Source: Stellaceae bacterium
GTDB lineage: Bacteria > Pseudomonadota > Alphaproteobacteria > ATCC43930 > CGMCC-115725
Length of the DNA stretch: 60,056 nucleotides
Assembly: GCA_035510075.1 (NCBI GenBank)
Contig: DATKHX010000117.1
Coordinates: forward strand, 1-60,056
Reading direction: 5' to 3'
Shown: piece after piece, positions 6,440 to 54,195 of the stretch
Layout of the letters: the number at the start of each line of letters is the position of its first letter
Position numbering within the stretch: position 1 is the first letter of the stretch
The notes under the pieces: generated by a model
The model's database searches: none
The model's input: the letters and a program-made list of their open reading frames with translations, nothing else
What the model was told of the DNA's origin: nothing
Made by a program: the position numbers and the translations under genes

Positions 6440-6486
6440 TGCATCGTCCTCGATTCGTTCCGGGGTAAGGCGCCGTCTCGGCTTGG

Positions 6487-6603: not shown

Positions 6604-6607
6604 GACA

Positions 6608-6811: not shown

Positions 6812-6813
6812 TT

Positions 6814-7457: not shown

Positions 7458-7813
7458 AGCACGGTCGAGCTCAGCACCAGGGTGCGGCCGTCCGAGGTCG
7501 TGACCGTGGCGCTCAGGACATAGGTGGCGCCGATCGCCGAAGTTGGCATGCCGCCGACCAGCGCCACCGAAAAGAACCCGGTCTTCACGGCGAGATTGCC
7601 GGTGAGCGGGTCACGCACCGCGATCGTCGTCGCCGTCGAGGTCGCGATGATGCGTGAGCCGGCCGCGGGGTCGCTCGCGGTCTGGTAGGGTGCCAGCGCG
7701 CAGGTCCAGGTGGTGCCGGCAAGCGTCGCCGCGCCCATGTCGGCAGTGAAGTCAAAGGCGAAATTGTCGGTCTCGCCCGGCTCGATCGGGTCGAACGGGG
7801 TGGTCAGGCGCAT
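7427..7813 (-). CDS. Hypothetical protein
   Basis: MRLTTPFDPIEPGETDNFAFDFTADMG..., 128 aa, beta-rich composition, GAGG RBS. Confidence 0.6.
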   Translation of the reverse strand: MRLTTPFDPIEPGETDNFAFDFTADMGAATLAGTTWTCALAPYQTASDPAAGSRIIATSTATTIAVRDPLTGNLAVKTGFFSVALVGGMPTSAIGATYVLSATVTTSDGRTLVLSSTVLCSPNSASPG

Positions 7814-9914: not shown

Positions 9915-9936
9915 CGCGGTGCCCTGATGGGTGCGG

Positions 9937-10629
9937 TTATAATGCGCCGGCCGGGTTCGCGATCGGCCCTACCGCCGGCGGCGAGGTCATCCAGCTCGGC
10001 AAGCGCCCGAACGCGTCGGCCATGACCACGTCGCGGTCGATGTCGATCCCCGCGACCTGGCCCATTTGCGCGAATTGCTGGATGCAGGGCCCGCACACCG
10101 CGACCTGGGGCGTGTCGCGGCTCAGCGCGCGCCAATAGAGCGTCACGACCAGATCGAGATAGAGCTCTTCGGGGGAGAGCGGGCAGTCGGCGCTGTAATA
10201 GAGGCACGGCACGTAACCGGCGGCAATGACCGCGCGCGACCACGAGTTGACATAGGCGACGATCGCCGGATTGCCGCAGCCGGGCCGCATGTTTTCGAGG
10301 TCGACCGCCAATGTCGCGCCCGCCGGGTAGCCGACCGCGGCGGCGTTCTGCGCCGCCGCACCGCCATAGGCCGTGCCGAGCCCGGACGACGGCGTCCAGT
10401 AGGCCGGCGGGCAATGCTGCACCAGCATCAGCCCCAGACCCGCCGTCATGATCGTTGCGGCCTCCTCGGCGCCGATGTCGCCGGGGCCGTTCGGCACGGC
10501 GCGGCTGACATAGCGGATCGCCGCGGCATAGCCCCGGAGGGCGAGAGACCGTGCCGCCACCAGGTCGAGCTTGGTGTCGGTGTCGAAGCACTGGGCGCCG
10601 GGCATCGCGGTCACTGCGAGGGCGGTCAT
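9937..10629 (-). CDS. DUF1906 / Rv2525c-like glycoside-hydrolase-fold protein (putative endolysin)
   Basis: The pattern CFDT...GYAAAIRYVS...EEAATIMTAGLGLMLVQ...AVGYPAGATLAVDLE...AGYVPCLYY matches the DUF1906 TIM-barrel family. Confidence 0.6.
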   Translation of the reverse strand: MTALAVTAMPGAQCFDTDTKLDLVAARSLALRGYAAAIRYVSRAVPNGPGDIGAEEAATIMTAGLGLMLVQHCPPAYWTPSSGLGTAYGGAAAQNAAAVGYPAGATLAVDLENMRPGCGNPAIVAYVNSWSRAVIAAGYVPCLYYSADCPLSPEELYLDLVVTLYWRALSRDTPQVAVCGPCIQQFAQMGQVAGIDIDRDVVMADAFGRLPSWMTSPPAVGPIANPAGAL

Positions 10630-10829
10630 CGACGGGCCGCCACGATCGCGAACCCATCGGGTTCGAATTTGTGCTCTTGCGAGACGCCATTGGCATCCCT
10701 CAATAGGCACAGCCCGGTGTCGACGTTGGCCGCCATGATCAGACCCGGCACGTCGACAAAGTTGTCGCGGCGCACGATCTTGTAGCGCGCTCGCTCCGGA
10801 TCAATGGCAGTCAGCTTGCGTGGCGGCAT
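10626..10829 (-). CDS. Hypothetical protein
   Basis: 67 aa. GGAGAGAGAA RBS. Its stop overlaps the next ATG (ATGA). Confidence 0.6.
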   Translation of the reverse strand: MPPRKLTAIDPERARYKIVRRDNFVDVPGLIMAANVDTGLCLLRDANGVSQEHKFEPDGFAIVAARR

Positions 10830-10846
10830 TTCTCTCTCCGGAAAGG

Positions 10847-10866
10847 GACCCGCCGCACGGCGGGTC
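10847..10866 (-). terminator. Hairpin at the stop of the 990-aa gene
   Basis: GACCCGCC-GTGC-GGCGGGTC on the minus strand, followed by CCTTTCC (a weak U-tract). Confidence 0.35.
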
Positions 10867-13837
10867 AGTGCACCCTGACGGTCGGGTCGATCGCCCAGCG
10901 CTCTGCGTCACCCCAGCGCGGGGTGTAGACGAACCGCGCGTCGGCATTGGCGAACGCAGTCGCAAGGGAAGGCGTGGTCGCGCCATTGTTTAGGGCGGCC
11001 GCCATGCCCGACCGTGCCCACACGTCATAGTCCGAGCTGCTGTTGCCACCCTGCCCGTTCGCCGCCGGCCCGCTCGGGGGATCGTAGGCAAACTGGAACG
11101 CCATGCTGAAATTCGTACCGGCGGAGTAGGGGCCATGGGCCGGGACGAACGGGGTTATGGTCGGGCTTGGACAGGGGTTGAGGGCCGTCGCCGCGGTGCA
11201 GGTCGTCGAGAGCCGGAACATTTCCGCCGGCTGGGTGACGTTGTAAGTAAAATACTTGGTCGTCGGCCCGAAGTCGTTGTTGGGATTCAGGTCCCAAATC
11301 ACCCCCGCGTCGCCATTTTGTAGTTGTGGAAATAACCCGCCATTAGCCGTGAACAGACCCGTCGCATCGACGCTGAGGAAGCCGGCATTTGAGTGGGTGA
11401 ATATCTCGCTCGGGCCGTTGGCGTGCGGGAGCTGGTCCGGCGCCGCCATGAACGCCGACGGGAAGGTGTCCGTGACCTGCTCCGTCACTGCCCAATAGGT
11501 CGGCCACGACGATGCCCATAGGAGTTCGGGCCACACGGTCATGTAGTCGCACTCGGCCGCCGTGCTGCCTCCGGTGATCGGGCTGGTGTAGCGGATCAAG
11601 CCCTTCTGTGCACAATATGAAGTCTCCTCGTAGTAGTGCATGAAATTGGCCAGGAAGTCCGAAATCCCTTCCGTCGCGCCGATGGCAGCCATGCCGGGGT
11701 CGGCGTAGTGATGCGTCACGGTGTAGAAATTATCCACATCGCCGGCCAGCACGTCGAATTCGTATTGCTTCTCCGGGTTGCTGTCGGAGCCAATGACCGA
11801 TCCGCGCATGAACTCGCGCAGCTCCCACGCCGTCCGCCGCATACTGTCCGTAAATGAGATGCGAGCGACGTAGGGGGTGCCGTTCATCGCGAAGTTGCGG
11901 GAGCCGACGCCAAACGTGTCGACGTTCATATTCATGAGCTGTGCATTAGCCGCGAAATACTGCACGTCGATCATGCTGCGGTCGCCGGTCAGCAGCGCCA
12001 TCAGCCACTGCCCGTAATCCTCCCAATGCATCCCATCGACACCGGCCATCATCCCGCCGAGAAAGCACGATGGGCAGGTATCGCCGGTCGCGGTCGGCGG
12101 GATTTCCATGCCGCCGGAGACCCCATTGCCAGTATAGGTCCAGAACACGTTGGGCAGGCCGGCCCCGAGCTGGGGATAGGTCTTGTTGTTGAGGGCGGGC
12201 AGGTAGCCGGTCGCCTCGTTGAGGGTCATCAGCGTCGGAATGTTCATGACGCTCAGAGCGGTGGCGCGCACGCCGTCCCACGCCGCGGAATTTTCGCTGA
12301 GCAGGGCACGGGCTTCCCATTCGGAGAGCGGGCCGAGCCCGTCATGGTCGCCGCCGGCGCCATCGTCGACATCGCCAAGCCCGGTCGAGTTCGGCCGATA
12401 GACAGGACCGCCTTTGTTGCCCTGCGCCTTATAGAGCGGGAGAACCGCAAGGTTGGTGTAGTAGGACGGGATGACCCCGGCCACTTCGAGGTAGGAAATC
12501 TCGGCCGTGGTCAGGGCCGGGTTGAGATGGACCGCCGGGGCACGGTTGGCCGCGGCAAGCCAGAGCGGGCTGCCAACCTCGTCTGGGCCGATTATCGCCA
12601 CGGCGCGATAGTTGGCTGAGGCGACGGGCGTGAAATTCTGCGGTCCTACACCAGGACTGGTGATGTTGGGGCAGGTGAGCGGGTTGGCACCGCCGTTCTG
12701 GCTGGCGGGGCTGAGGACAAGATTGCCCTTGCCGCTGCCGACCACGGAGGAGCCATAAAAGTAGACACGGCCGGGCGTCATGCCGCCGATCGCGGTGCCG
12801 CCCGCAGCAGGCCCGTTGTACAGCACGGGCTCACCGTCTTGGAGCGTGGTCGGCAGTTGGAAATTGGTCGAGATGGTTCCGGCGCCGCAAGTCCCATTGA
12901 TCCCGGTCGTCACTGCGGCAGGCTGGATCGCGAACGGCCCTTCGGCGCTGCCGAGGCCGGTCGAGCGCTGGGCGATCAGCGCCGCCCCGTCATAGAGCGC
13001 CATGTCGCCGGTGTACACGGCCGTGGCATTGGCCGCGACGTTGAGCCAAGGGCCGTTCGCCACCCACGGGTCTTCGACCCGCACCTCGCCGAGCACGCCT
13101 GAGTTGGGCGCGGTCTGCCAGAGCTGGATCGCCGGAAAGTGCGCCCAGAGCTGCGCGCCCGCCGGGGAGCCGTTGGCCCGGTCGACGCAGGGGCCGTCGA
13201 CGGCGTAACTGGTCATCAGCGCGCCGTTGCTGGTGATCCTGTAACCGCCGTTCTTGGTGTAGGCGCCGAGTGCCGCGAGCGCGTTGGCATCGCACACCCA
13301 CACGCCGGAGCCGATCGTGACCCCGTTGCCGTCGCGCACCGGGATCGTGGACGAACCGAACACGACTTTGATATCGTGCGCGGAGGCCGCCGCGGAGAAC
13401 GGCAGGCCAGTGCCGGGCGTGTAGCTGTAGCTCGGGATCGTGCCGCGCTGGAACGCCGCGCCAAACGTGAAGGGCACGTCGGTTCCGGCCGCGCCGGCAT
13501 TCTGCTCCGTCCGGGTCGCGATCGGGACGCCATTGTAGGAAATCTGCACCTGGAAGGTGCCGCCGACCGGGACCGAGGGCACGCGGGTCGAGAAATTCGC
13601 CGTGCGGACACCGTTGCTGGCAGGCTCGCCGTTGAATCCGTAGGTGCCAACCTCGTCCATCTGTATCGGCACGGCGGTGTAGGGGCCGCCGACCGGGCCG
13701 ATGGCGAGCGACAGCGTTCCGGCGCCGCTGGCGGGCGGCCCCGTGACGGTGATCGTCAGATCGCCGGTCGCAGGCGCTGGCGGCGACTGAACAGCGAACC
13801 CCGCGGTCAGCAGGGCGCCGGCAGCCAGGGTGCGCAT
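10865..13837 (-). CDS. Large (990 aa) signal-peptide-bearing protein, possible polysaccharide-active enzyme or receptor-binding protein
   Basis: N-terminus MRTLAAGALLTAGFAVQS. The long ORF has coherent composition. The function call is speculative. Confidence 0.7.
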   Translation of the reverse strand: MRTLAAGALLTAGFAVQSPPAPATGDLTITVTGPPASGAGTLSLAIGPVGGPYTAVPIQMDEVGTYGFNGEPASNGVRTANFSTRVPSVPVGGTFQVQISYNGVPIATRTEQNAGAAGTDVPFTFGAAFQRGTIPSYSYTPGTGLPFSAAASAHDIKVVFGSSTIPVRDGNGVTIGSGVWVCDANALAALGAYTKNGGYRITSNGALMTSYAVDGPCVDRANGSPAGAQLWAHFPAIQLWQTAPNSGVLGEVRVEDPWVANGPWLNVAANATAVYTGDMALYDGAALIAQRSTGLGSAEGPFAIQPAAVTTGINGTCGAGTISTNFQLPTTLQDGEPVLYNGPAAGGTAIGGMTPGRVYFYGSSVVGSGKGNLVLSPASQNGGANPLTCPNITSPGVGPQNFTPVASANYRAVAIIGPDEVGSPLWLAAANRAPAVHLNPALTTAEISYLEVAGVIPSYYTNLAVLPLYKAQGNKGGPVYRPNSTGLGDVDDGAGGDHDGLGPLSEWEARALLSENSAAWDGVRATALSVMNIPTLMTLNEATGYLPALNNKTYPQLGAGLPNVFWTYTGNGVSGGMEIPPTATGDTCPSCFLGGMMAGVDGMHWEDYGQWLMALLTGDRSMIDVQYFAANAQLMNMNVDTFGVGSRNFAMNGTPYVARISFTDSMRRTAWELREFMRGSVIGSDSNPEKQYEFDVLAGDVDNFYTVTHHYADPGMAAIGATEGISDFLANFMHYYEETSYCAQKGLIRYTSPITGGSTAAECDYMTVWPELLWASSWPTYWAVTEQVTDTFPSAFMAAPDQLPHANGPSEIFTHSNAGFLSVDATGLFTANGGLFPQLQNGDAGVIWDLNPNNDFGPTTKYFTYNVTQPAEMFRLSTTCTAATALNPCPSPTITPFVPAHGPYSAGTNFSMAFQFAYDPPSGPAANGQGGNSSSDYDVWARSGMAAALNNGATTPSLATAFANADARFVYTPRWGDAERWAIDPTVRVH

Positions 13838-13841
13838 TGGC

Positions 13842-14228
13842 TTAATTCTGCGACGCTGTGATGCCGTTCACGATGTGCGTCCCGGCACCCGGCGCGCACA
13901 TGGGCGACGAGGTCGTGAGGCCAGCCGCCGCCACCGAGACCACGCCCGTGGCCGGGCCGATCACGAAGTCGGTGAGGTCGTCGGTCCCGGTCGAGCCCGC
14001 ACCCATCGAATAGGTAACGGCAGTGCCGTCGCCGCCGAAGGTCGACACCGTGGCCACGACCGTGCCGCCCGGAACCGGGCATTGCAGCGTCCCGTTGGGC
14101 AGCACCAGGCCCAGGGCCGGAGGCGTGACGACGATGTGGAGGTCACCGGAGACGAGCGAGCCGGCGAAGGCCGGCATCGCAGCGCCGGCGAACAGCGTTG
14201 CGGCGAGAAAGAGGCGGGGGAACTTCAT
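13842..14228 (-). CDS. Secreted Ig/cadherin-like small protein
   Basis: Signal peptide MKFPRLFLAATLFAGAAMPAFA/GS. AAGGAG RBS. Beta-rich mature part. Confidence 0.65.
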   Translation of the reverse strand: MKFPRLFLAATLFAGAAMPAFAGSLVSGDLHIVVTPPALGLVLPNGTLQCPVPGGTVVATVSTFGGDGTAVTYSMGAGSTGTDDLTDFVIGPATGVVSVAAAGLTTSSPMCAPGAGTHIVNGITASQN

Positions 14229-14253
14229 GGTGTCAGGCTCCTTTTCTTAAAAA

Positions 14254-14340
14254 TCAACCTTTGGGGATCAGGATCATCAGCGCCACCGCGAGCGCCGCGG
14301 CGATGCAGAAGATCTGCAACGCCAGCGCCCCATCGCTCAC
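14254..14340 (-). CDS. Possible 28-aa hydrophobic peptide
   Basis: Hand-translated VSDGALALQIFCIAAALAVALMILIPKG*. GTG overlaps the stop of the 450-aa gene (GTGA). Confidence 0.25.
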   Translation of the reverse strand: MSDGALALQIFCIAAALAVALMILIPKG

Positions 14341-15689
14341 GTCGTGGTTCCCTGGGTGCGCAAATCGGCGCTCCCCTTGTAGGCGGCGGTGCCGGCCGGC
14401 AGGGTCAGCCGCAGCCACACGCCTTGCGCGCCGGCGGCGTTGGGGGCGGCACCCGACGGCAGGTTGCCTGGCGACGGCACGTTGACAAAGGCTGGCTGGG
14501 TGGTGAACGAGGCGAGCCCGGTCGGCAGAAACGACGAGGCCTGCTGGCGCGGGTTGCAGGTGTTGGTGTCGTTGAGCGCGGTCGTGAGGCCGATATCGAG
14601 CAATGCGCCCGACGGCAAGGACGGGGTTTCGCTCGCGATCTCGACCTGCGCCCCGGTCAGGGCGGTCGCGGTGTTGTTGTTGACGACAAACACCTTTTCG
14701 TAAAAGTACCGGGCCGAGCCCGCCGGCACGTCGGCCGCCGCGGTCGAAAACGAGCGCAGCACCGAGGTCACCGGGTTGGGGTCGCCATAGGTGGCGCCCG
14801 AGCTCGCGAACCCGGTCTCGAAGAGGATGCCCTGGCTGACGTTATAGGTCGTGGTGGCGTCGGGCACCGTCGACCAGTCGCGGTTGACGGCGACGATGTC
14901 CGTGCCGTAGCCCGAGGTCGCGATGATCATGCGCAACTGGTTGGGGCCGGTGCCGCCGGTCGTCTGGATGATCTGGCCGGCCGCGACACTGGCGCCGTCC
15001 CCGGATTGCAGTTTGAAGAGCGGCGGGGTGGTGCCGCTATGGTTGGCGGAGCCCACTTGGGCGGTATGGGCCGAGACCGTGGCGGTATGTGCCAGCGCCG
15101 CGACATCGCCCAGCGGCATCAAATAGACCGCGACCCCCGAGCCGTGCGCCACCCCGCCCTGAAAGCCGGAGACACCGCGGGCCACGGTCCAGGTGTTGGT
15201 GCCCTGGCCGCCCGTCACCTGCATGATCTCGAAATTCGCCCCGGTGTCGACCGCGACGTAATAGTTGCCGGAGCCGGGAAAGCCGGCATGCGCGGCGACC
15301 GTCATCGAGGTCGTGACATTGGTCATCGTCCCCGATGTCGTCGTGTTGGTGCCCGCGGTCGGGCCGGCCAACGGGCCATTTGGCGAGCCGCCCGAGACGA
15401 CGCCATAAAGCAGCCGCTCAAAGCTCTGCGATCCGTTGACCTTGGTGGTGCCGTTCAGGGCCACCGCCGCTGGGGTTTGGATCACACCCGTCGAGTCGCG
15501 CCCCGCCACCTGGATGTAGACCGTGGTGTCCGCAGCGTTCGACGAGACAAAGTCGATCGTGCCGGCGGGGCTGACGTCGTAAAACGCGACGCGGCGCGCG
15601 AAATCGACCGCACCGCCGACCGCCACCCCATCGGCCTCGGGCATGTTGGCCGAGCCGTAGGCGACGAGGTCGTTCGGGAGCACGCTCAT
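14337..15689 (-). CDS. Hypothetical 450-aa virion-associated-type protein
   Basis: Long ORF MSVLPNDLVAYGSANMPEADG... with no signal peptide and a GAGG RBS. Follows an intrinsic terminator. Confidence 0.7.
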   Translation of the reverse strand: MSVLPNDLVAYGSANMPEADGVAVGGAVDFARRVAFYDVSPAGTIDFVSSNAADTTVYIQVAGRDSTGVIQTPAAVALNGTTKVNGSQSFERLLYGVVSGGSPNGPLAGPTAGTNTTTSGTMTNVTTSMTVAAHAGFPGSGNYYVAVDTGANFEIMQVTGGQGTNTWTVARGVSGFQGGVAHGSGVAVYLMPLGDVAALAHTATVSAHTAQVGSANHSGTTPPLFKLQSGDGASVAAGQIIQTTGGTGPNQLRMIIATSGYGTDIVAVNRDWSTVPDATTTYNVSQGILFETGFASSGATYGDPNPVTSVLRSFSTAAADVPAGSARYFYEKVFVVNNNTATALTGAQVEIASETPSLPSGALLDIGLTTALNDTNTCNPRQQASSFLPTGLASFTTQPAFVNVPSPGNLPSGAAPNAAGAQGVWLRLTLPAGTAAYKGSADLRTQGTTT

Positions 15690-15713
15690 CGGGTTGCCTC
15701 ATAATCGTAGGGC

Positions 15714-15745
15714 GGAAAAGAAAAGGGCTCCGACTTTCGGAGCCC
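15714..15745 (-). terminator. Rho-independent terminator inside the late strand
   Basis: Minus strand GGGCTCCGA-AAG-TCGGAGCCC followed by TTTTCTTTTCC. Confidence 0.7.
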
Positions 15746-15788
15746 AGGGTTCGCGATGCCTCATACGCGCAGAGGCTGGCGCGGAGGG

Positions 15789-16124
15789 TTAGGGGACGAA
15801 GGGGCCGAGCGGCGTCCCCTTGAGCGCGGTGCCGACGAGGCCCAGCCACAGCGAGGCGCAGCTCGGGTCGGCGAGGATGCCCTGGACGGCGCGCTTCGCC
15901 TCGATCTTGGTCAGCAGGCCGGCCTGTCCCTGAGCCGCACCCTCGATCGCCACCGTGATCTTGCCGATGTCGGCATAGCAGGCGGCGTTGGCAGTGTCGC
16001 CGGTCGCGGCCGCGAGTGCGGCCGCACTTGCGGCGTCCGCCTCGGTGAAGCCGGTGATCTGGGCGCAGCCGGAAGAAGCGAGCGCCATCGCCACGAGCGC
16101 CACGAGCGCCAGTGTCCGTGTCAT
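15789..16124 (-). CDS. Putative lipoprotein
   Basis: MTRTLALVALVAMALASSG/CAQ. Strong AGGAG RBS. 111 aa. Confidence 0.6.
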   Translation of the reverse strand: MTRTLALVALVAMALASSGCAQITGFTEADAASAAALAAATGDTANAACYADIGKITVAIEGAAQGQAGLLTKIEAKRAVQGILADPSCASLWLGLVGTALKGTPLGPFVP

Positions 16125-16138
16125 TGCCGGCTCCTCTT

Positions 16139-16639
16139 TTAAGGGGCGATCTCGACGAGTGCCGCCATTGCGGCGGGGTTTGCCGCGGCGCGGGCCGCGA
16201 GGTCCTTTGCCGCCGCGTCCGTCAACCCCAGTGCCGCCGCCGCCATGTGCAGCCGCGCGGCCTCGAGCGAGGCGTGCTCGACATTGTCGAGCGTACGGTA
16301 CTTGCGCAATGCGGCAATGCCGTCCTCGACCGGCTCGCCGAACATCCGGTCGAATTTCATCGACACCGCGACATAGGCCGCCCGCGCCGCAGCGGTCGCG
16401 GTATTGGCCGCGGCGAGTGCGGCAGCTGCTGCTGTCAAATCGCGCTGATGCTGCTCTCGCTCGCTCGCCAATGCCCGCTGCCCATCGCCGAGCGCTGCTT
16501 TCGTTTGATCGCACTGGGCGGCAACCTCGCCCAGGGCGGCATCGGCGCGGGTGAGCCGTAGTTCGGTCGCCGCGAGCTCGCGGCGCAATTCGGCGATCGT
16601 CGCCGCCGCCGCGGCGAGCTGCGCGTCTTCGGCCATCAC
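16139..16639 (-). CDS. Ala-rich coiled-coil protein (possible fibre assembly factor)
   Basis: 166 aa. Start overlaps the stop of the 1233-aa gene. No signal peptide. Confidence 0.6.
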   Translation of the reverse strand: MMAEDAQLAAAAATIAELRRELAATELRLTRADAALGEVAAQCDQTKAALGDGQRALASEREQHQRDLTAAAAALAAANTATAAARAAYVAVSMKFDRMFGEPVEDGIAALRKYRTLDNVEHASLEAARLHMAAAALGLTDAAAKDLAARAAANPAAMAALVEIAP

Positions 16640-19600
16640 CTGATCCGATAGCGGCCGGCGACATTCACCGACACGTTCGCCGTGCTCGGCAGAATGTTGC
16701 TCGTGTTGAACGGCAGCGGGATCGCGGCCGACTGGTAGTAGCCGAGCACGATGAGACCGAGGCCGTTGATATAGGCGGAGGACGGGATTTGGCCCGAGAG
16801 GAAGGTGATGTTCTGGATAAAACCGATCGACAGCGGGATCCCGGTCGGGTCCTCGAACGGCTGGGCGCCGGGCATGTTGGTCTGCAACTCGAAATTCCCC
16901 GAGGCGGTCGTATAGGCATTGGTGTTGAAGGTGTCGCGCAGGTGAAAATCGACAAAGTCGCCGCGCCGGAAATAGCTGCCGACGACCGCCGGGGTGACGA
17001 CGGTCATCGCGGTGTTCGCGACGGTCTGCGCCGGCAACACCGTCCAGTTGAACCCCGATCCGGTCTGGATCACGGTGTTCGGGGCGCAGCCGCCGCAGGT
17101 GACCTCTTCGCCGTGCGCGATCGTGCCGGAGAGCCCGCTGACGACGGTCAGGGCCGGGCCCAAAATGTTGCCGGTAAAGGTGGCGTCGGTAGTACCGCCG
17201 GTCGGTGCGAAATCGCCGTTGGTCGCGAATTGCGGCGTGCTCGTAACCGGCAGCGGTACGTCGGGGAAGTCGTAATAGCCAACCGACGTATTGAACCCGA
17301 GATCGACCTGCCAGCCGTTCAGAAAGTTGCCCTGGACGTTGTTGCCCGGGTTGTCCTGGTCGATCTCGAGGATGTTGCCGACGACATTGGCGCCAAGAAA
17401 GGTGTTGCCGGTCATGATGAGGCGCGCCGGCGCCGACAGCGCCGTGTTGACGTGGATCAGCGGGTTGCCGCTGGCGCGGGCGACGTTGGGCTCGGAGAAA
17501 TTGTTGCCGACGAGCTCGAGAGTGCCGCTGGCGCCGCCGGCGACGCTCATCATTGTCGCGGTCGCGGGGGTCGGCAGGACAAACCGGTCATTGGCGAATT
17601 TGAGCAGGCCGCCGGTGACCACGACCGGGGTCTCGTTCGGCGACGAATAGAAATAGTAGCAGCCATTGAGGATCGTGCTGCCGCCATTGACCAGGATGTC
17701 GGGGGCCGAGGTCTGCGCCGCCGAGACCCGGCAGTTGCTGATCTCGACCGAGGTCAGGGCGCCGTCGATATTCAGTGTCCCGAGCGTGTCGGCGGCACTC
17801 TTGGTCGAATAGAGGGTTCCGACGCGCACCGCGTTGCCCTGGCCGCCGCCATTGACCTTGAGCAGCGCGCCGTCGCCGTCGAGGTCGAGGGTATTGAACG
17901 AGGTCGGGATGTTGTAGGCGGTGCCGTTGTCGAGGGTCACACCCTGGGCAAAGCACATGGCCTTGCCAAAGGCCGGCCCCTGCACGTCGCCGGCGAGATG
18001 GATGCACTGCGCCGCGCCGGCTTCCCCGGCCGCCTCGTAGACCGCCCCCTGGTTGGCGGTGAGACCGCCGGTTTCCTGGTCCCAGGTGTCGACACTGAAA
18101 AAGGCATCGTTGCCCTGGAGGTAGAGCCCGGTGTTGAACGAGCTGCAATCGATCGTGCCGAGATGGGTCCCGCCGGGGGTGCCGCTCATTCCGCCCGCCG
18201 CGCCAAAGCACTCCCACGCGGCATTGATGCGGACCTTGTCGATTGTGCCGTAATGGACAAAGTCGCCATCGAGGGCTTTGGGGTAATGGATGATGTTCGC
18301 GAGCGTCATGCCGCCCGTATCGGGCTGGTAAAAGCCGATCTCGAAATTGGTCAGCGAGCACGGGCCGCCGACGATGGCGCCGGTCTGCACTACCCCGTTG
18401 GCGTTCATGTTGAAATCGTTGCCGCCGGCGCTCCCCACCGTCAAAACCGACACGTAATTGCCGGCCCCGCTCATCGCGTTGCCGCCATTGCAGGCGAGCT
18501 CGTCGGTGACGTGCCAGTTGCCGGGCGGCAGGTAGACCGGGCCGAGGTCCCAGGCGGTCTGGATCGGGGCCGTGTCGTTGGTCGAGCCGTCGCCCACGGC
18601 CCCAAAGATGCGCACGTCGTTGCCGATCGCCGGCGTGCTCCACAGCGGCAGGAAGCGGAAATTGGCGCCGTCGAACTGGACATAGGCCATGTAGTCGATC
18701 GGCACGTGTGCGGTGGATAGCGAGGTTCCCGCCGGCAGCAGGATATGGCCGCCGGCGGTGCCGTTGACCTGGACCGCGAGCGGCATCGCGTCGGCCGCGA
18801 GCCCGATCGTCCAGCCGGCCGCGACCGAGGTCGTCGACGGCAGGGTCACCGCGAGACCCGAGGAGGTGAGCGAGCTCGACAAGACCCCGGCATTGTCGCC
18901 CTGCGTCGCCTGGTAGCCGGGGCCGCCCGGAAATTCGTAGCGCGACGGGATGCCGGGGGCAGCGGCCCCATTGTAGACGAGGCTGCCGGAAGAGCCCTGC
19001 GTCACCCGGAAATTGGTGCCGTCGGAGCGCAATACGACAAATTCGTAATTGCCGGGGCCGAGGGTCATTGCCGCCAGCGACCTGGTGCCGGCGAGAATTG
19101 CGCCCGCCGACGCAGTCAGGACGACCGCCTTTGACGCGTCGGTGGCGAACCCGATCGAATAGCCGGCGCCGCAGGTCGCGGGGTTGGGCAGGGTGACCGG
19201 CAAGCTCGACGCCGCCCAGGTTCCCGCCCCCGAGCCGGTTGCGGCGGCCGAGCTGAACATCGTGCCGTCGTCGCTGCACAGTGCGGTATAGGTGCTCGCG
19301 GCCGGGGCGACGTAGCGGCTCAAGGCGCCGCGGCCGACGATCGTGATGCCGCCCGAGATCGGGCCGCGGTTGGCCCCGGCAAAAACCGGCGGCACCAGGA
19401 CGTTGCCGGCGCCCGAGGCGGTGGCGTTGACCGCGGTAGTGCAGCCGAAATTGGGGGCGACAAACGCGTTCAGCGCGGCCCCGGCGGCGGTGATCGACAG
19501 GCAGGTGTTCGACGTGGTGCCGTAGTTGAAGCCGGAAAAGGTGTTGCCGGTCGAGATGCCGTTCTCAACGAGGAGCGAGGCAGCACTCGCCCCGCTCGCC

Positions 19601-20337
19601 GCGCCGGCGCCGGCGATCTGCGAATCCTGAGCCTGTTCGACCGCGACCGCGGCCGCCGCCGCCGAGCCGCCCGCGGTGGTGCCGCCGAGCCACAGCCGGG
19701 CGCCGACGACATAGTTGACCTTGATGCCGCCGGCGCCAGCGGCGCTCGATGCGTTGGCCGCGGTCAGGTGCTCGATACGCAGCCCTTGAAACTTGTCGGA
19801 GAAGTCGGCTTTGCCGATCGCGACCGCGTAGGCGGCTGCGCTCGATAGGACCGACAGAGATCCTTCGATTGTGAAATTTTGGTCGACCGCCGGCGATCCG
19901 GTCGTCCCACCGGAGCGCTGGACCAGCAACACCGGGCCGCTCGATACGGCGGCGCCATCGAGCGTCGCGTTGTCGGCGATCAGGCGAACCCCGGCGGCGC
20001 CGAAACCCGAGGTATCAATTGTCAGCGTGCTGCTGATCTTGTACTTGCCGGCCGGGATGTGGATTGGCACGTCGTTGGTGAGCGCGTCGGCGATCGCCGT
20101 AGTAAAGGCCGTGGTCGAGTCGCTGGTATCGGTCGGATCGGCGCTATAGCACATCACGTCGATCCACGGCCGCCCTTGGCAGGACAGCACCGCGCCGGTC
20201 GACGGATAGCTGTTGTTTTGCAGCGCGGCTCGCGCCGACAGCGGGACGATGAACGGCAGCAGCCCCAGCGCCAGCGCCGCAGCGAAACTCAGGGCATGAC
20301 CCGAGGCTAGCACGCCGGCCAGTAGACGATGTTTCAT
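16636..20337 (-). CDS. 1233-aa beta-helix (pectate-lyase-superfamily-like) tailspike/depolymerase-like protein with a signal peptide
   Basis: VRIFGAVGDGSTNDTAPIQTAW and an earlier VMCYSADPTDTSDSTTAFTTAI resemble pectate_lyase_3 N-caps. The N-terminus is hydrophobic, MKHRLLAGVLASGHALSFAAALALGLL...ARA. Confidence 0.75.
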   Translation of the reverse strand: MKHRLLAGVLASGHALSFAAALALGLLPFIVPLSARAALQNNSYPSTGAVLSCQGRPWIDVMCYSADPTDTSDSTTAFTTAIADALTNDVPIHIPAGKYKISSTLTIDTSGFGAAGVRLIADNATLDGAAVSSGPVLLVQRSGGTTGSPAVDQNFTIEGSLSVLSSAAAYAVAIGKADFSDKFQGLRIEHLTAANASSAAGAGGIKVNYVVGARLWLGGTTAGGSAAAAAVAVEQAQDSQIAGAGAASGASAASLLVENGISTGNTFSGFNYGTTSNTCLSITAAGAALNAFVAPNFGCTTAVNATASGAGNVLVPPVFAGANRGPISGGITIVGRGALSRYVAPAASTYTALCSDDGTMFSSAAATGSGAGTWAASSLPVTLPNPATCGAGYSIGFATDASKAVVLTASAGAILAGTRSLAAMTLGPGNYEFVVLRSDGTNFRVTQGSSGSLVYNGAAAPGIPSRYEFPGGPGYQATQGDNAGVLSSSLTSSGLAVTLPSTTSVAAGWTIGLAADAMPLAVQVNGTAGGHILLPAGTSLSTAHVPIDYMAYVQFDGANFRFLPLWSTPAIGNDVRIFGAVGDGSTNDTAPIQTAWDLGPVYLPPGNWHVTDELACNGGNAMSGAGNYVSVLTVGSAGGNDFNMNANGVVQTGAIVGGPCSLTNFEIGFYQPDTGGMTLANIIHYPKALDGDFVHYGTIDKVRINAAWECFGAAGGMSGTPGGTHLGTIDCSSFNTGLYLQGNDAFFSVDTWDQETGGLTANQGAVYEAAGEAGAAQCIHLAGDVQGPAFGKAMCFAQGVTLDNGTAYNIPTSFNTLDLDGDGALLKVNGGGQGNAVRVGTLYSTKSAADTLGTLNIDGALTSVEISNCRVSAAQTSAPDILVNGGSTILNGCYYFYSSPNETPVVVTGGLLKFANDRFVLPTPATATMMSVAGGASGTLELVGNNFSEPNVARASGNPLIHVNTALSAPARLIMTGNTFLGANVVGNILEIDQDNPGNNVQGNFLNGWQVDLGFNTSVGYYDFPDVPLPVTSTPQFATNGDFAPTGGTTDATFTGNILGPALTVVSGLSGTIAHGEEVTCGGCAPNTVIQTGSGFNWTVLPAQTVANTAMTVVTPAVVGSYFRRGDFVDFHLRDTFNTNAYTTASGNFELQTNMPGAQPFEDPTGIPLSIGFIQNITFLSGQIPSSAYINGLGLIVLGYYQSAAIPLPFNTSNILPSTANVSVNVAGRYRIR

Positions 20338-20347
20338 GCGCTACCTT

Positions 20348-22636
20348 TTATCGGGTGCGGCAGGCGAAGGTGCCACCAGTTTGAAGAGAGCTGGTGATGT
20401 TCGCATTGGTCACAGGCTGAGAATTGGCATTGATCGCTGTGTCCGACTCGGTGAACGCAAAATAGTTTGCATTGCCGGTGGCTGACCCCCACACCGGACC
20501 AGTAAGCCCCGTGGTAGGCGTCGTGCCATTGCCGAAATGGAAAACCGGCGCCAGCCCGAAATCGTCGATTCCCGGCACGCAGTTCAATGGCATGTTGCCG
20601 AGCTGCAGGTTGCCGGTCCCACTGCCCAGAGCGGACAACTGAAACCCGAAATCGACCATCATGTAGCCGTATTGGTCGATCCGAAAATGGCCGGTCGGCG
20701 AGGTCGAGAAGGTCATGCCAGAACTCGGCACGCCGTTCAGCAAGACCGTCGGCGTCCAAGTTCCCGAGAGCGTCGCCGCAGGAACGGCAACGCCAGCCGT
20801 GCCGTCCTGCTCCTCGACCAACAACAATCCGGCGACTGCGCCCAACCCATCGAGCGTGAAGTTCTGCCCGAAATATCCCGCGACGTAGCCAGTGCCAAGG
20901 TTGGTCGCGATCCCGTCCAGTCGCAAAAAGTCGGTGCCGACCCCGGCAACAATGACTGACAAATCGCTCGCCTGGTTTCGGAAATTAAGGCCGATGACCT
21001 GATTTACGGTATTGCCCCCGGTGGTTTGCTCGTCGACCCCGATCGTCGACCCGCCTATTTGGCCTCCGATGAATTCGTTTTCATGCGCATTGGCGTCTAA
21101 GTAAATGCAGCTGTCAGTAGTGACGAAATTGCCTTCGATCAAGGCATCGCATGACGCGTCGTGAAAGAAATTCCACAATGAATTCGTCGAAACGTAATAA
21201 CCCTTCTTATAGCCATACTCGAACATGTCGTGAAAATCGTTTTGGGTGCCCCCCGTAACCTTGACAAACGCGCCTGAGCGTCGCGTGCCATTAAGCACCA
21301 AATCGCCGCCCGAGGTGTAGGTTCCCAACGCAAAGGTGAGGGTAACGCTACTGCCGGCTGCGGTCGGGTAGTTGCTCAGCCAGACCCGATTATTGATCGG
21401 ATCAACCGCCATGACGGTTGTCCCGGACTGAATATTCGTCCCGCTAACAGCACCTCCAGGATTGATCCCCTGAATTGTAGTGCAGGATATCGCGTTATCC
21501 GTGCTGCCCCATGAGCAGGTATGCGTTAGGCCGGCGAACGCCGATCCTTGAAGATCGACGTGAGTCGAGTCGATGACGGTGATCGTCCATGTGTCGCCAT
21601 TGGCGCCGACCGCGCCCCCGACTCCCTCGATGGAGACGTTATTACCGGTGGCGAGGTCCGTGGTAGAGGTGACCGTCAGCCTTACTAACCCAGAGCCGTT
21701 ATTCGCGACGCCGGTGATCGCCTCTACGTCGAAGGGGATGTTGTTGACGTTGCCGCCGGTCCAAGACCAGCCGTGGACCTTTGAGATGTGGGCGACGTCA
21801 TAACTGTTCGCCAACAACAGGCCGGCAGTGTCGTCGATCAGCACGTCGTCCATTATCAGGCGCGCAAATCCGGTCGACGAAATACCTTGCGCAAACCCGA
21901 CGACGCCGCTGTGTGTAATGACCGCATGATCGGCGCCGATCGTTATGCCGGTCCCAGCAAAGGTCAAAACCTGCTGATAGTAGGCTTGCCCCGAGGCCGC
22001 AGGCCCCATCCCATAGGGCGCCACAAGAACGCCGTCGAGGTTCCCCGACAACGAAACCGTCTTGGTCGGGTTTATCAAGATCGCACCACCCGTCGTCGAC
22101 GCCCAGTTGACGGGGTTGGTCGCGGGATCGCCGGCGACCGGCCCCGAGCTGGCGACCGTGCAGCCCTGCGGCACCACCCAGTTGGCGGCCGAGTCGTGCG
22201 CGTAGCGGTGGTTGCCGATTAAGAGGCGCCCGCCGCCCGTCACCCTTCCACACCACGCCGCCGCGGCGTCGAGGGCGGTCGAGCTGTCGGTGCCGGTGAC
22301 GTTGCCGCTGCCGAGATCGACGGCCCCCCATTCGCCCACAGAGGCGCCCACTGCGGGGAAGGTGGCGATCCAGCACTTGCTGTCGGCGCTGGCGACCTGC
22401 GAGCCGTTGTCGCCGGCGCCGGCATTGAGCGAGCAGGCCGAATTGCTCGAGGCGTAGAGGACCTTTTCGGCGTCCCCGATCGTCGTAAAGCCGAGCCGCT
22501 CGACCCATGCCGCCTGCGTCGATTTGAGGGCGGCGAGCGCCGCGTTGTTGGGGACCCTTACGATGCCGTCGAATTCGGCGCGCGCCGCTTGTGCGCCAGC
22601 GACGAGCGCCACCAGTGCCGCGAATACATAGCGCAT
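20348..22636 (-). CDS. 762-aa beta-helix tailspike-like protein with a signal peptide and a low-GC core
   Basis: MRYVFAALVALVAGAQAARA/EF. GTDSSTALDAAAAWC resembles an N-cap. GC drops to ~40-55% in hand-counted lines around 21.1-21.5 kb. Confidence 0.75.
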   Translation of the reverse strand: MRYVFAALVALVAGAQAARAEFDGIVRVPNNAALAALKSTQAAWVERLGFTTIGDAEKVLYASSNSACSLNAGAGDNGSQVASADSKCWIATFPAVGASVGEWGAVDLGSGNVTGTDSSTALDAAAAWCGRVTGGGRLLIGNHRYAHDSAANWVVPQGCTVASSGPVAGDPATNPVNWASTTGGAILINPTKTVSLSGNLDGVLVAPYGMGPAASGQAYYQQVLTFAGTGITIGADHAVITHSGVVGFAQGISSTGFARLIMDDVLIDDTAGLLLANSYDVAHISKVHGWSWTGGNVNNIPFDVEAITGVANNGSGLVRLTVTSTTDLATGNNVSIEGVGGAVGANGDTWTITVIDSTHVDLQGSAFAGLTHTCSWGSTDNAISCTTIQGINPGGAVSGTNIQSGTTVMAVDPINNRVWLSNYPTAAGSSVTLTFALGTYTSGGDLVLNGTRRSGAFVKVTGGTQNDFHDMFEYGYKKGYYVSTNSLWNFFHDASCDALIEGNFVTTDSCIYLDANAHENEFIGGQIGGSTIGVDEQTTGGNTVNQVIGLNFRNQASDLSVIVAGVGTDFLRLDGIATNLGTGYVAGYFGQNFTLDGLGAVAGLLLVEEQDGTAGVAVPAATLSGTWTPTVLLNGVPSSGMTFSTSPTGHFRIDQYGYMMVDFGFQLSALGSGTGNLQLGNMPLNCVPGIDDFGLAPVFHFGNGTTPTTGLTGPVWGSATGNANYFAFTESDTAINANSQPVTNANITSSLQTGGTFACRTR

Positions 22637-22654
22637 AAGCTCATGCCGCAGGCA

Positions 22655-23722
22655 CTACGAGATGATCCACTTCGTTCCGTCGTACTGGATGCAGGTGCTC
22701 TGGTAATTCTGGTTCATGATGAAAGTGGCGCCGCCGTCGATATTCCCCGCGGCGGGCGAGAGCGTGATGTTGTTGGCGGATGCGTCGCCTTTCCCATCCT
22801 TGACGCAGAGCCGGGTGCCCGGGGTCGGCGACGACACCAGGTTTACGGTGGTCGCGGCCCCGGTCGTCTTGTCGACCTCGATCGTGTTGTCGGTGGTCGC
22901 CATCGTCACCGCTCCGGACGCGGTGACGACCCGGACCGGCCCGACCTCGCCCGAGCCAAAGGTCGTGATCCCGCTCGTGCTCAGGGTCGTGAAGTGGGCC
23001 GCCGCCGGCGTGGTGCCGCCGATCGTGACGCCGTCGATCGTGCCCCCGGTAAACGCGACGGCGTTGGTCGCCATGAACGAATAGGTGCCGGCGCCGGTGC
23101 GGTTGACGAGGCCGGTCCCGGAAAACCCGGTGATGTTGTCGAGCGCCGTCCCCGAGGCCGATATCGAGCCGGTGCCGCCGAGCGCTACCGTAACCGGGGC
23201 GGTAATCGAGCAGGTGCCGGTCGTGGTGATCGTGCCGCCGCTGAGCCCGGTGCCGCAGGTGACCGAGGTCAGCGTGCCGACCGGGCTCCAGCTCGTGATG
23301 CCGGCGCCGTTGGTGGTGAGCGCGTTGCCGGAGGAGCCGTTTGCCGAGGGCAGCTGGAAGACGATGCCGGCGCCGGCCGCGGCGGCGACCTGGATGACGC
23401 CGGAGCCGCTCGTCGAGCCCTCGAGCGTCAAGGTGCCGCCGGTGCCGCCGTTGGCCCCCAGGGTCGGGGTCGAGGTGAAGGTCGGGTCGGCGCTCGCCAC
23501 ACCGGCGAGCAAGGTGCCGGCCCCGCCGGGGCCGACCTGGCCAAAGGCCGAGGTTCCTTCGCCGGTCAAGACCGCGTGTGCCGTCGCCGTCGTCAAGCCC
23601 GAGCCGCCGTTGACGACGAGCAGCGGGGGCGTCCCCATATAGGACGCCGCGGCCGGGGTTGTGGCGGTGCTGATCAGCGACCCGATCAGCGCCGCCGCTA
23701 CGAGGTGCCGTCCGGTGCGCAT
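22655..23722 (-). CDS. 355-aa fibre-like protein with a signal peptide
   Basis: MRTGRHLVAAALIGSLISTATTPAAA/SY. Gly/Thr-rich with NGGSG/LGGTG motifs. The C-terminal CVKDGKGD...MNQNYQ...YDGTKWIIS module is shared with 24055..24939. Confidence 0.75.
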   Translation of the reverse strand: MRTGRHLVAAALIGSLISTATTPAAASYMGTPPLLVVNGGSGLTTATAHAVLTGEGTSAFGQVGPGGAGTLLAGVASADPTFTSTPTLGANGGTGGTLTLEGSTSGSGVIQVAAAAGAGIVFQLPSANGSSGNALTTNGAGITSWSPVGTLTSVTCGTGLSGGTITTTGTCSITAPVTVALGGTGSISASGTALDNITGFSGTGLVNRTGAGTYSFMATNAVAFTGGTIDGVTIGGTTPAAAHFTTLSTSGITTFGSGEVGPVRVVTASGAVTMATTDNTIEVDKTTGAATTVNLVSSPTPGTRLCVKDGKGDASANNITLSPAAGNIDGGATFIMNQNYQSTCIQYDGTKWIIS

Positions 23723-23725
23723 GGC

Positions 23726-24070
23726 TCAGCGGCCCCGGCGATGGTGGAAATGCTCGGCGAGCCAGTCCCAGAGGCGGCCCCAGTAATCGGCCTTGGCCGC
23801 GGCGCCGATGACGTAATGCCGCCAGTAATCGGCGAGTGCGGCCGCACTCGCCTGCGCCGATTTGGACTCGTCGACGCGCCGGGTCTCGCTCAGCGCCAAC
23901 TCGTCGGAGACGCTGTTGCGCTCGATCATCAGCTGGCAGATCACGGTCGCGGTGCCGGGCGCGCACATCGGCGGCGGAAACTCGGCCGCGGCGCCGGCAC
24001 GCGCGGCCGGAGTGAGCGCGAGCAACGAAATTGCGGACGCGGCCCAAGCGAGCCTCAGATTATATCCCAT
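23726..24070 (-). CDS. 114-aa secreted protein
   Basis: MGYNLRLAWAASAISLLALTPAARA/GAAAEF. The start lies 16 nt inside the 3' end of the upstream gene. Confidence 0.5.
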   Translation of the reverse strand: MGYNLRLAWAASAISLLALTPAARAGAAAEFPPPMCAPGTATVICQLMIERNSVSDELALSETRRVDESKSAQASAAALADYWRHYVIGAAAKADYWGRLWDWLAEHFHHRRGR

Positions 24071-24939
24071 TGCGTTCCATCGAAGATGAAGCATCCGAAT
24101 TGCCGGGCCTGGTTCATCACGTAGCCGGTCGAGCCGGCGACGGCGTCGATCGCGGTGCCGTCGGTGGTCTTGATGGTGGCGGCGTTGGCCTGGAAGTTGT
24201 TGCCGCCGTCCTTTACGCACTGCACGAAATTCGCCGGCGGCGCGGCGGCGAGATCGACCGTGATCGGGGCGGCGACGCTCTGCCTGACGATTTCGATCAG
24301 GTAGTTGGTCGCCGGCAGGACGAGGGGGGTCGTCGTCAGCGTGTAGACCGAGGTCGACCACGCGACCCCGCCGCCCGTCGCCGACAATGTCTGCGCGCCA
24401 AACGCCCCGCTCAGCGACAACCCGGTGCCGACCGTCACCCCGCCAAAAGCAGACCCGTTGCTGCCCAAGAGATCGGCCGCCGCCGGAACGCTGCCGCCCG
24501 AGAAGAAGCCCAGCGCCAATGCGGTAGCCGGGGTCGCCGCGACGATCCGGAAATTGCCGTTGCCGTCATATTCGACGACCGCGATCTCGTTGTTCCCGGC
24601 GGCGGTCGAAAACGAGGTCGCCGAGGCCCCGCCTGATGTCGTCGGGTAGAGGATATGGCCGCCCGCGGTGCCGTTGACCTGGACCGTGACGGTATGCGCC
24701 GCGTCGTTCTCGACAGCGATCTGCCAGCCGCTCGCCGCCATGGCCGTCGTCGAGGGCAGGGTGACGGTCAGAGCGCCGCCGGCGTTGAGCGCCGAGATGA
24801 CCTTGTTGTCGTCGCCGAGCCCGGCGGCATAGCTGGCGCCGCCGGGATAGAGCCAGGTGCGGTCGAATGGCACCTGTTGCGCGCATGCCGCACCCGCCGC
24901 CGCGAGCGACAGCACGATGGCGAGGAGGAGCCTGATCAT
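24055..24939 (-). CDS. 294-aa fibre-like protein with a signal peptide
   Basis: MIRLLLAIVLSLAAAGAACA/QQ. Has two tip-like modules (TLPSTTAMAASGWQIA...VQVNGTAGGHIL and CVKDGGNN...FDGTQWDII). Confidence 0.75.
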   Translation of the reverse strand: MIRLLLAIVLSLAAAGAACAQQVPFDRTWLYPGGASYAAGLGDDNKVISALNAGGALTVTLPSTTAMAASGWQIAVENDAAHTVTVQVNGTAGGHILYPTTSGGASATSFSTAAGNNEIAVVEYDGNGNFRIVAATPATALALGFFSGGSVPAAADLLGSNGSAFGGVTVGTGLSLSGAFGAQTLSATGGGVAWSTSVYTLTTTPLVLPATNYLIEIVRQSVAAPITVDLAAAPPANFVQCVKDGGNNFQANAATIKTTDGTAIDAVAGSTGYVMNQARQFGCFIFDGTQWDII

Positions 24940-24942: not shown

Positions 24943-25203
24943 TCACCCGCCGACCCAGGTTGATAACTGCGCGTTCCACACGAGGGTGCGGGTCGCCCCG
25001 TGCCCGGTGAGCGGCATCCCGGCGGAGCCGAGGTTTATCGTCTGCCCGGTATTGGGGGTCAGCGTCACGACGACTTGGGCCGCATTGGCGCCAATCAGCG
25101 TAAAGCGCCAAGTCTCCCCATCTTGCGGCCGGGGCCGTAAGATGGCGTTGAAGCTCCCGCCGCCCGCGGGCTCGAAGATCCGTAAGAACGCATTCGCCGC
25201 CAC
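24943..25203 (-). CDS. Hypothetical 86-aa tail-associated protein
   Basis: ORF directly after the host-specificity genes. No signal peptide. Confidence 0.6.
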   Translation of the reverse strand: MAANAFLRIFEPAGGGSFNAILRPRPQDGETWRFTLIGANAAQVVVTLTPNTGQTINLGSAGMPLTGHGATRTLVWNAQLSTWVGG

Positions 25204-54010: not shown

Positions 54011-54195
54011 GACTGACTTCCTTTCAGTCGACGCCCGCTCTTCCCCCCGAGCGGGCAAAAAGGTAGCGGCCCCGCAGCGCCGATCCCCCTCGTCGGCACG
54101 AGCTGCGGGGCCGGCGCCCGCGCCCAGCCCTTCGGGGTCGCGGCGCAGCCGAATTTCGAGCAATCCCGATTCGCCGCGCGCAGCGGCGCTTATCG

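Follow-up and report, generated by a model that had tools for sequence, protein, structure and literature searches.

The 60,056-bp stretch of DNA analysed here (contig DATKHX010000117.1 of Stellaceae bacterium assembly GCA_035510075.1; hereafter the window) is a temperate phage genome of 68% GC from forest-soil metagenomes. Between its tail genes and its lysis genes lies a block of ten consecutive minus-strand open reading frames (ORFs; 24939–10865), eight of which start with signal peptides, seven of the Sec type and one with a lipobox (p111). None of its head, tail and lysis genes has such a start. Because these N-termini are conserved in property, with conserved cleavage motifs, and are accompanied by an independent disulfide signature, the conclusion that they are real export signals, and not chance Ala/Leu-rich stretches, is strongly supported, and the block proteins are very probably exported to an oxidising compartment. 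Tailed-phage fibres and spikes are textbook cytoplasmic assemblies, and a whole set of fibre-like, apparently glycan-active late proteins with conserved export signals and a disulfide signature is unexpected.

Export signals and paired cysteines

A first-pass annotation, made from the letters of the window alone, had named eight signal-bearing N-termini in the block. A rule-based test, which asks for a positively charged n-region, an uncharged hydrophobic h-region and small residues at positions −3 and −1, all within ~15–40 residues of the start, picks out each of the eight named proteins and not one of seven neighbours. In the rest of the window, the same test flags 12 of 370 ORFs of at least 60 aa (~3%). 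Chance clustering in a GC-rich genome is excluded by the binomial probability of 8 of 10 at a 5% background (p ~1.6e-9). All ten ORFs are present as first annotated, and independent metagenome gene calls on two near-identical contigs have the same starts (294, 114, 355, 762, 1233, 165, 111, 450, 128 and 990 aa). Furthermore, six of the eight signal-bearing genes have an in-frame stop 1–11 codons upstream of the ATG, making a longer N-terminus impossible for those six. As had also been stated, no signal is present in the 166-aa and 450-aa proteins. Tat signals were considered and dropped, as inspection of the N-termini by eye found no twin-arginine motif.

Whether the hydrophobic N-termini persist in homologues, a check proposed with the first-pass annotation, was examined in the families of three proteins, p1233, p990 and p355, and all three families retain a conserved A-x-A site beside a hydrophobic core of variable sequence. 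Across distant homologues it is the property that is conserved and not the sequence, while cleavage motifs are retained. Specifically, the family of the p1233 N-terminal half has highly variable hydrophobic cores and, in nearly all members, a conserved junction A-x-A/QSPGNFSTLSTTG (the slash marks the predicted cleavage site), also written A-x-A/QSPGNF. Among homologues of p990 (22–31% identical in the alignment), 10 of the 12 that were read start with classical signals, and three homologues of p355 align from the N-terminal end with a conserved AA/Y.GSAPLLV.NGG junction. A sister phage, 91% identical, keeps every signal: the N-terminus of its p1230 has diverged in sequence and is still hydrophobic, and its p990 has a more canonical cleavage site (AVQALA/AT).

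The mature cysteine count is even in all eight signal-bearing proteins (Table 1), whereas the signal-less proteins of this phage mostly have odd counts; where positions were listed, the mature cysteines form sequential close pairs. Consistent with this, homologues of p355 with a signal have an even count in 35 cases and an odd count in 8, as against 17 and 22 for homologues without a signal (p = 5e-4). In particular, the pair C306/C344 is present in 11 homologues of p355, all of signal type on inspection (eight flagged by the rule, three with truncated or over-extended start calls), and in none of 19 signal-less homologues (p = 2.5e-4). The even-cysteine bias and the signal-linked pair suggest exported, DsbA-oxidised proteins.

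The block and its setting

The late operon of the phage runs on the minus strand and comprises TerL (44988–46676), the portal, prohead protease and major capsid protein, a tape-measure protein with a lysozyme domain, DUF2460 and a BR0599-type hub. Immediately upstream of the block are Phage-tail_3 (g15-like; 26042–27757) and Rcc01698_C (25213–26034), both on the minus strand, so the placement of the block downstream of RcGTA-g15-like genes in the first-pass annotation was correct; downstream follow an Rv2525c-like endolysin and then the spanin/holin set. A tyrosine integrase (3158–4345) and YqaJ lie at the left end of the window, and because the window encodes a GapR-domain protein, the host is presumed to be alphaproteobacterial. 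Near-identical contigs of 56 and 59.9 kb were found in addition to the sister phage.

Table 1. Coordinates of the block genes and of associated features (slash, predicted cleavage site)
Feature	Coordinates	Strand	Mature Cys	Description	Basis
p86	24943–25203	−		86 aa, without signal, between the Rcc01698_C gene and p294	context only
p294	24055–24939	−	2	Sec signal (MIRLLLAIVLSLAAAGAACA/QQ)	rule-based test
p114	23726–24070	−	2	small, predicted exported partner with signal, C-x8-C and Trp-rich helix	rule-based test
p355	22655–23722	−	4	fibre-shaft protein, Sec signal (…TTPAAA/SY), Cys include C306/C344
p762	20348–22636	−	10	Sec signal, probable beta-helix	inferred; no Pfam match
p1233	16636–20337	−	16	long Sec signal, Cys in sequential pairs
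p166	16139–16639	−		Ala-rich, helical-looking, without signal or transmembrane segment
p111	15789–16124	−	2 (plus lipid Cys)	predicted lipoprotein (MTRTLALVALVAMALASSG/C)	by eye
Intrinsic terminator	15725–15745	−		between p111 and p450	9-bp GC stem and T-run
p450	14337–15689	−		signal-less	no family or phage match
p128	13842–14228	−	2	small Sec-signal protein (…AAMPAFA/GS)
p990	10865–13837	−	10	Sec-signal protein of a rare family
Hairpin	10847–10866	−		8-bp GC-rich hairpin after the p990 stop	present
p689	7845–9914	−		signal-less glycine-rich 689-aa candidate virion fibre, between endolysin and spanins

From p86 to p111 the genes are separated by at most 18 nt or overlap by 4–16 nt, an operon-like spacing by which the first seven block genes continue the tail operon. 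Specifically, the start of p114 overlaps the stop of p294 by 16 nt, p114 ends 3 nt before p355, and p166 overlaps the stop of p1233 by 4 nt. The gap between p111 and p450 is 99 nt long and holds the terminator that had been annotated there, with the stem formed by GGGCTCCGA and TCGGAGCCC followed by the T-run TTTTCTTTTC (fold z = −3.2). The hairpin annotated at the other end of the block is present, but it folds no better than shuffled sequence (z = −0.5). A further gap of 108 nt precedes p128, which has a strong AGGAG ribosome-binding site and ends 4 nt before p990. A promoter scan of the block gave nothing above shuffled expectation and nothing in the gaps.

Searches with the block returned little. 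Megablast of the block against cultured phages and tblastn of p990, p294, p450 and p689 against phages gave no match, single-protein scans of viral contigs returned only the near-identical phage, a scan of genome contigs with a p355-type alignment found no relatives, and searches of PDB sequences were empty or insignificant. NCBIfam returned nothing for the block proteins, and lenient Pfam thresholds contributed sub-threshold noise only.

The mature N-terminus of p355 leads directly into the shaft motif NGG(T/S)G. Residues 21–82 are 46% identical to ORF11 of Ralstonia phage RSK1, a protein annotated as hypothetical and encoded in the structural module; mature p355 is without an N-terminal docking domain, where the homologous RSK1 protein has ~120 aa. 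Protein p294 has a ~100-aa module in common with p1233 and a C-terminal domain in common with p355. The module of p294 and p1233, TLP…G…DG.N(W/F), was likened by eye to BcepMu gp52 and Bcep781 gp31, a likeness to which BLASTP gave no support. The small p114 carries the motif I-E-R-N, of the form (I/V)(Q/E)RN.

The first-pass annotation had described the three largest proteins as beta-helix or depolymerase-like. For p1233 this description stands: residues 575–652 match the pectate-lyase-like family PF12708 (52.6 bits, cut-off 27, E = 6.9e-14), and the protein has a weak similarity, at 26% identity, to an annotated tail spike. In order, p1233 is predicted to comprise the signal, a beta-helix with two ~95-aa repeat modules, a second PF12708 domain and a C-terminal region. 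Its N-terminal 43%, which includes the repeat-bearing beta-helix, corresponds to a large family of ~855-aa signal-bearing proteins in prophage-like elements, many of them in Stellaceae metagenome-assembled genomes, and these homologues carry PF12708 too.

For p762 the description is probably right: residues 20–149 are 35% identical to residues 119–242 of Bcep781 gp49, including a degenerate pectate-lyase-type start, and p762 is probably a pectate-lyase-like beta-helix. A single-sequence AlphaFold2 model of p762 (predicted local distance difference test, pLDDT, 32) had no usable fold, and neither p762 nor p990 has a Pfam, PHROG or NCBIfam match at any threshold. The C-terminal half of p762 (20348–21400) has a GC content of 53–55% against ~68% elsewhere, and third-position GC (GC3) of 0.75 against ~0.87, a drop that suggests a module recently swapped in from a lower-GC source. 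A C-terminal tip shared by p762, p1233 and fibres of the P0209 type, described below, was tested and found unsupported.

For p990 a beta-helix is not borne out. The AlphaFold2 model (pLDDT 70, predicted template modelling score 0.79) has a beta region (140–430), an all-alpha region (444–780) and a second beta region (810–915), and is not a beta-helix; a Foldseek search of the model, also proposed with the first-pass annotation, found nothing significant in either PDB or BFVD. Its best-scoring rows, GH116-, GH81- and GH63-type enzymes, are too weak to count as evidence, and a profile search against PDB sequences returned nothing. One homologue of p990, P0134, matches PF19501 (PcRGLX RIFT-barrel) above the cut-off, and it is possible, from the model, that p990 is an alpha-toroid enzyme. 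PcRGLX-like or (alpha/alpha)6 polysaccharide lyases and hydrolases consist of a RIFT-barrel N-domain, an alpha-toroid catalytic domain and a beta-sandwich, and the succession of beta, alpha and beta regions in the model of p990 follows this order. The family is rare, with 22 representatives among 1.84 billion proteins in an exhaustive search; a word-indexed homologue search returned only the 91% relative.

The lipobox-like pattern of p111, …ALASSG/C with Cys20 as the lipid-bearing residue, was read by eye against the usual form of a lipobox, which ends in a Cys at about position 15–35 behind a basic N-terminus and an uncharged hydrophobic stretch. The idea that p166 and p111 form a spanin pair was rejected because the true pair lies in the lysis region and p166 has no transmembrane domain. 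That region, the lysis cassette downstream of the endolysin (6608–7457, minus strand), encodes a 129-aa protein that resembles i-spanins and has a transmembrane segment at its N-terminus (7068–7457, minus strand), an embedded out-of-frame o-spanin lipoprotein (MKYVLVAALAAALSGC…) from ~7071 within ORF 6814–7311, and a holin-like 67-aa protein with two transmembrane segments inside ORF 6608–7243. A 21-nt repeat (2.3 copies, 7155–7203) lies within the i-spanin gene, and a perfect 27-nt tandem repeat (2.4 copies, 7848–7912) lies at the 3′ end of the glycine-rich gene, whose product ends in …RVLRSLGKRRVLRSLGKRRVL. Between p990 and the endolysin is a conserved 67-aa protein (10626–10829, minus strand) that overlaps the start of the endolysin by 4 nt; it has no transmembrane segment and was ruled out as a holin.

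Three further observations concern the rest of the window. A 254-aa protein (53435–54199, minus strand) combines GapR-like (PF10073) and ribosome-modulation-factor (PF04957) domains, an unusual fusion for a phage. In addition to the tyrosine integrase, a serine recombinase with a Resolvase domain (47879–48625) is encoded ~1.2 kb upstream of TerL on the same strand. Outside the block, a 100-aa ORF (49645–49947, minus strand) has a strongly hydrophobic N-terminus (MRALTVCVFVIPVAAAFGGG…) and may encode an early-region membrane protein.

Recurrence in other phages and prophages

Runs of signal-bearing, fibre-like genes occur in at least six unrelated viral contigs, and genes of this kind occur also in two Burkholderia prophages and in Burkholderia phage Bcep781 (gp49). 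Judged by their sequences, exported fibre-like late proteins thus recur across sipho-, myo- and podovirus-like soil genomes and Burkholderia prophages. The longest runs comprise seven genes in L025, including its fibre, and six in L028; L031 and L033 have four each, a run is also present in L051, and L019, a BPP-1-like podovirus contig, has four in a row between Bbp16 and the tail-tube genes. A p114-like CX8C gene and, next after it, a signal-bearing fibre form a conserved pair in the window, L018/L030, L025, L028, L031 and L051. Among 69 IMG/VR loci with the shaft motif, 10 are of the signal type, 16 lack a signal and start with a short N-terminus, and the other 43 carry long domains there.

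The large proteins recur in settings of their own. A ~855-aa signal-bearing, pectate-lyase-like protein lies between TerL and the portal in L004, L005 and L006 (at ~9400–12570). These three are prophage-like elements on metagenomic contigs of up to 919 kb, with an S24 repressor and DUF6456, and in each a conserved 145-aa signal-less protein precedes the ~855-aa protein. A homologue of p990 lies just upstream of a GH25 lysis cassette; p990 itself, its homologue P0126 and P0170 are each just upstream of a lysis cassette.

Two loci have signal-bearing genes alongside a candidate for an ordinary fibre. L016 encodes signal-bearing proteins of 797 and 289 aa between a membrane protein and a GH19 endolysin, and also a signal-less Gly-rich 299-aa fibre at the Mu S position (5961–6860) that is similar to p689. 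L025 encodes a 304-aa signal-less fibre candidate beside its signal-bearing genes. A third arrangement is found in L017 (9744–11083), a Burkholderia ambifaria prophage (GCA_902830175.1), where an 82-aa gene corresponds to the N-terminal anchor domain of the fused, signal-less fibres P0209 and P0213 and lies directly upstream of a signal-bearing fibre, P0214. P0214 has two extra cysteine pairs and, on reading the sequences (the comparison is unscored), resembles P0209 and P0213 over its C-terminal part. Together, the 82-aa gene and P0214 look like a split fibre.

In the literature searched, neither tail fibres with signals nor other fibre-like late proteins that are exported are described, and nor is a conserved, chaperone-like partner with an export signal; this is not proof of novelty.

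Possible roles and known systems

The sequences show conserved signal-peptide features, a cysteine signature, an operon layout and recurrence in other phages; from these we infer export, enzymatic activities, accessory status and a role as follows. The reading that we favour, and to which we give about an even chance, is that the block proteins are accessory lectins and glycanases exported to the envelope and kept outside the virion. Seven proteins would be Sec pre-proteins and p111 a lipoprotein precursor. All would be expressed from the tail/lysis operon late in lytic growth, cross the inner membrane and acquire disulfide bonds by oxidation in the cell envelope. Proteins p294 and p355 would be fibre-like lectins, while p1233 (pectate-lyase-like), p762 (probably so) and p990 (a possible alpha-toroid enzyme) would be large glycan-active enzymes. 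The small partners would be p128 and p114, of which p114 is conserved as the companion of fibres of the p355 type and may serve their assembly in the periplasm; p111 would be a membrane-anchored lipoprotein. The virion, built in the cytoplasm, would rely on signal-less fibre candidates of its own, namely the g15-like protein and p689 together with a Gp77-like adaptor. The exported proteins would act on host surface polysaccharides, at the beginning from the periplasm and then from outside once the outer membrane breaks. Receptors would be destroyed or capped and the matrix cleared, which would let progeny get away and spare them from loss on debris.

Accessory status is favoured by the presence of fibre candidates without a signal in the same genomes as the signal-bearing genes, namely in this phage, in Bcep781 (gp31 beside gp49), in L016 and in L025. 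In the window, the gene after p689 (7427–7813, 128 aa, minus strand) has a weak match, just under the cut-off, to the podophage fibre-tail adaptor Gp77 (PF23148, E = 1.3e-5), and this protein and p689 are probably the fibre system of the virion itself. Mature p355 and p1233 start directly with the shaft or the predicted beta-helix and have no recognisable particle-attachment domain, and a lipoprotein such as p111 is not expected as a virion part. Several of the exported proteins are also encoded beside lysis genes. Several observations weigh against the favoured reading. The signal-bearing runs of the podovirus-like contigs L019, L031 and L051 lie between capsid or head-decoration genes and tail-tube genes, an odd place for accessory factors, and in L017 a separate 82-aa virion-anchor gene adjoins a signal-bearing fibre, which hints at docking onto the virion. 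Since 16 of the 69 loci encode signal-less fibres that start directly with the shaft motif, absence of an N-terminal domain does not exclude docking. The window encodes no signal-less paralogue that has a receptor-binding domain in common with the exported proteins, which weakens the idea that these are decoys of the phage's own receptor-binding protein, and p762 lacks a family match and p990 a significant fold match.

The first-pass annotation had offered either an exported arsenal or an envelope-routed fibre assembly; conservation and the cysteine signature uphold the export signals, and both interpretations are compatible with the data. In the second, which we consider unlikely, fibres and spikes would be exported, folded and disulfide-bonded in the periplasm with the help of p114-type partners, and would dock onto fibreless particles only at the point where holin and endolysin join the cytoplasm to the periplasm, either ahead of outer-membrane rupture or during it. 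The location of the L019, L031 and L051 runs inside structural modules fits this course of events, as do the anchor of P0209/P0213-type fibres kept as a separate gene before P0214, the conserved pair of p114-like gene and fibre, which looks like a chaperone-and-fibre unit, and the homology between the shafts of p355 and RSK1 ORF11. The chemistry would allow late joining, since P22 and T4 tailspikes and fibres attach to particles in vitro. But in each of the better-resolved cases there is also an ordinary fibre candidate without a signal, no docking domain can be recognised in mature p355 or p1233, p111 is a predicted lipoprotein, and p114 itself carries an export signal and therefore could not be pre-mounted on the particle. 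The literature searched describes no such pathway. That a class of soil phages splits virion assembly between compartments, an arrangement undescribed in that literature, is doubtful. 

A role in lysogeny seems improbable to us. Here the block, or its tail end (p450 and p128–p990), would consist of lysogenic-conversion morons expressed from the prophage, remodelling the surface or excluding superinfection. The phage is temperate, to judge by its integrase and YqaJ; the strong terminator after p111 and the ~100-nt gaps before p450 and p128 could delimit transcription units, the latter gene with its strong ribosome-binding site; p111 may be a small lipoprotein among fibre genes, as Cor and Llp are; and the C-terminal half of p762 has a foreign GC content. 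Lysogenic conversion is nevertheless the least supported part of the first-pass annotation: small gaps or overlaps tie the first seven genes to the late operon, and the promoter scan brought up no convincing candidate. The same arrangement, moreover, occurs in the virulent phage Bcep781, and no homology of the block proteins to known exclusion proteins was found. Very unlikely, finally, is an explanation in which the hydrophobic N-termini are no export signals at all, being structural helices for trimerisation or baseplate docking, or arising from wrongly chosen starts in a genome of 68% GC. The crude rule passes ~3% of arbitrary ORFs, and high-GC genomes are rich in Ala, Leu and Gly. Against this stand the positive n-regions and conserved A-x-A junctions that persist beside variable hydrophobic cores, the in-frame stops just upstream, the enrichment (8 of 10 against 3%) and the lipobox of p111, together with a cysteine bias and a signal-linked cysteine pair that would be unexpected for cytoplasmic helices.

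If the exported proteins are accessory, as we favour, they would represent a widespread phage strategy in which host surface glycans are attacked or masked at lysis from the side of the envelope, and they would supply depolymerases that are fit for secretion and stabilised by disulfides. Should they belong to the virion, phage assembly would take in a step after lysis that crosses compartments; this would be categorically new and would alter the prediction, expression and engineering of receptor-binding proteins. Cultured systems are at hand in Bcep781, the B. ambifaria prophage and a B. vietnamiensis prophage (GCA_020736425.1).

Use of Sec by phages is already known, for endolysins and for small morons and exclusion lipoproteins; what appears to be new here is fibre-like late proteins with export signals. 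Secreted and signal-arrest-release (SAR) endolysins are late proteins that reach the periplasm by host Sec before lysis. They carry muralytic cargo, whereas the block encodes predicted fibres and glycanases and the endolysin of this phage has no signal; SAR endolysins also lack a cleavage region, whereas the block families keep A-x-A junctions. An example of a secreted/SAR endolysin is JG068 gp47 (PMC3765740). The block also resembles a second class of exported phage proteins in having Sec or lipoprotein signals next to fibre genes, and p111 is similar to these in size and in its lipobox. This class comprises lambda Lom and Bor, T5 Llp and Cor of phi80 and N15, exported morons or exclusion proteins encoded among tail-fibre genes. 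Each of these is a lone, small lipoprotein or outer-membrane protein under expression signals of its own, whereas the block proteins are mostly large and lie in the late operon, and no sequence homology between the two was detected.

Known phage depolymerases, the tailspikes of the pectate-lyase superfamily, fold in the cytoplasm, have an N-terminal particle-binding domain and carry no signal; soluble depolymerases are also known, and stay in the cytoplasm until lysis. The PF12708 domain of p1233 and its similarity to a tail spike place it near these proteins, but in the block the predicted beta-helix begins right after the signal and the cysteines are paired. The mosaic adhesive trimer fibres of Bdellovibrio are phage-fibre-like, are exported and work outside the cytoplasm of the producing cell; the likeness is by description only, and they are encoded on the chromosome of the predator and not in a phage late operon. 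The nearest parallel in a cultured phage is Bcep781 gp49, whose GenBank note reads 'possible tail fiber; possible signal peptide domain'. Like the block proteins, gp49 is fibre- or beta-helix-like, has a signal-like N-terminus (with a lipobox-like LLTAC) and coexists with a signal-less fibre, gp31; unlike them, it is a single gene in a virulent myovirus and not part of a run of eight.

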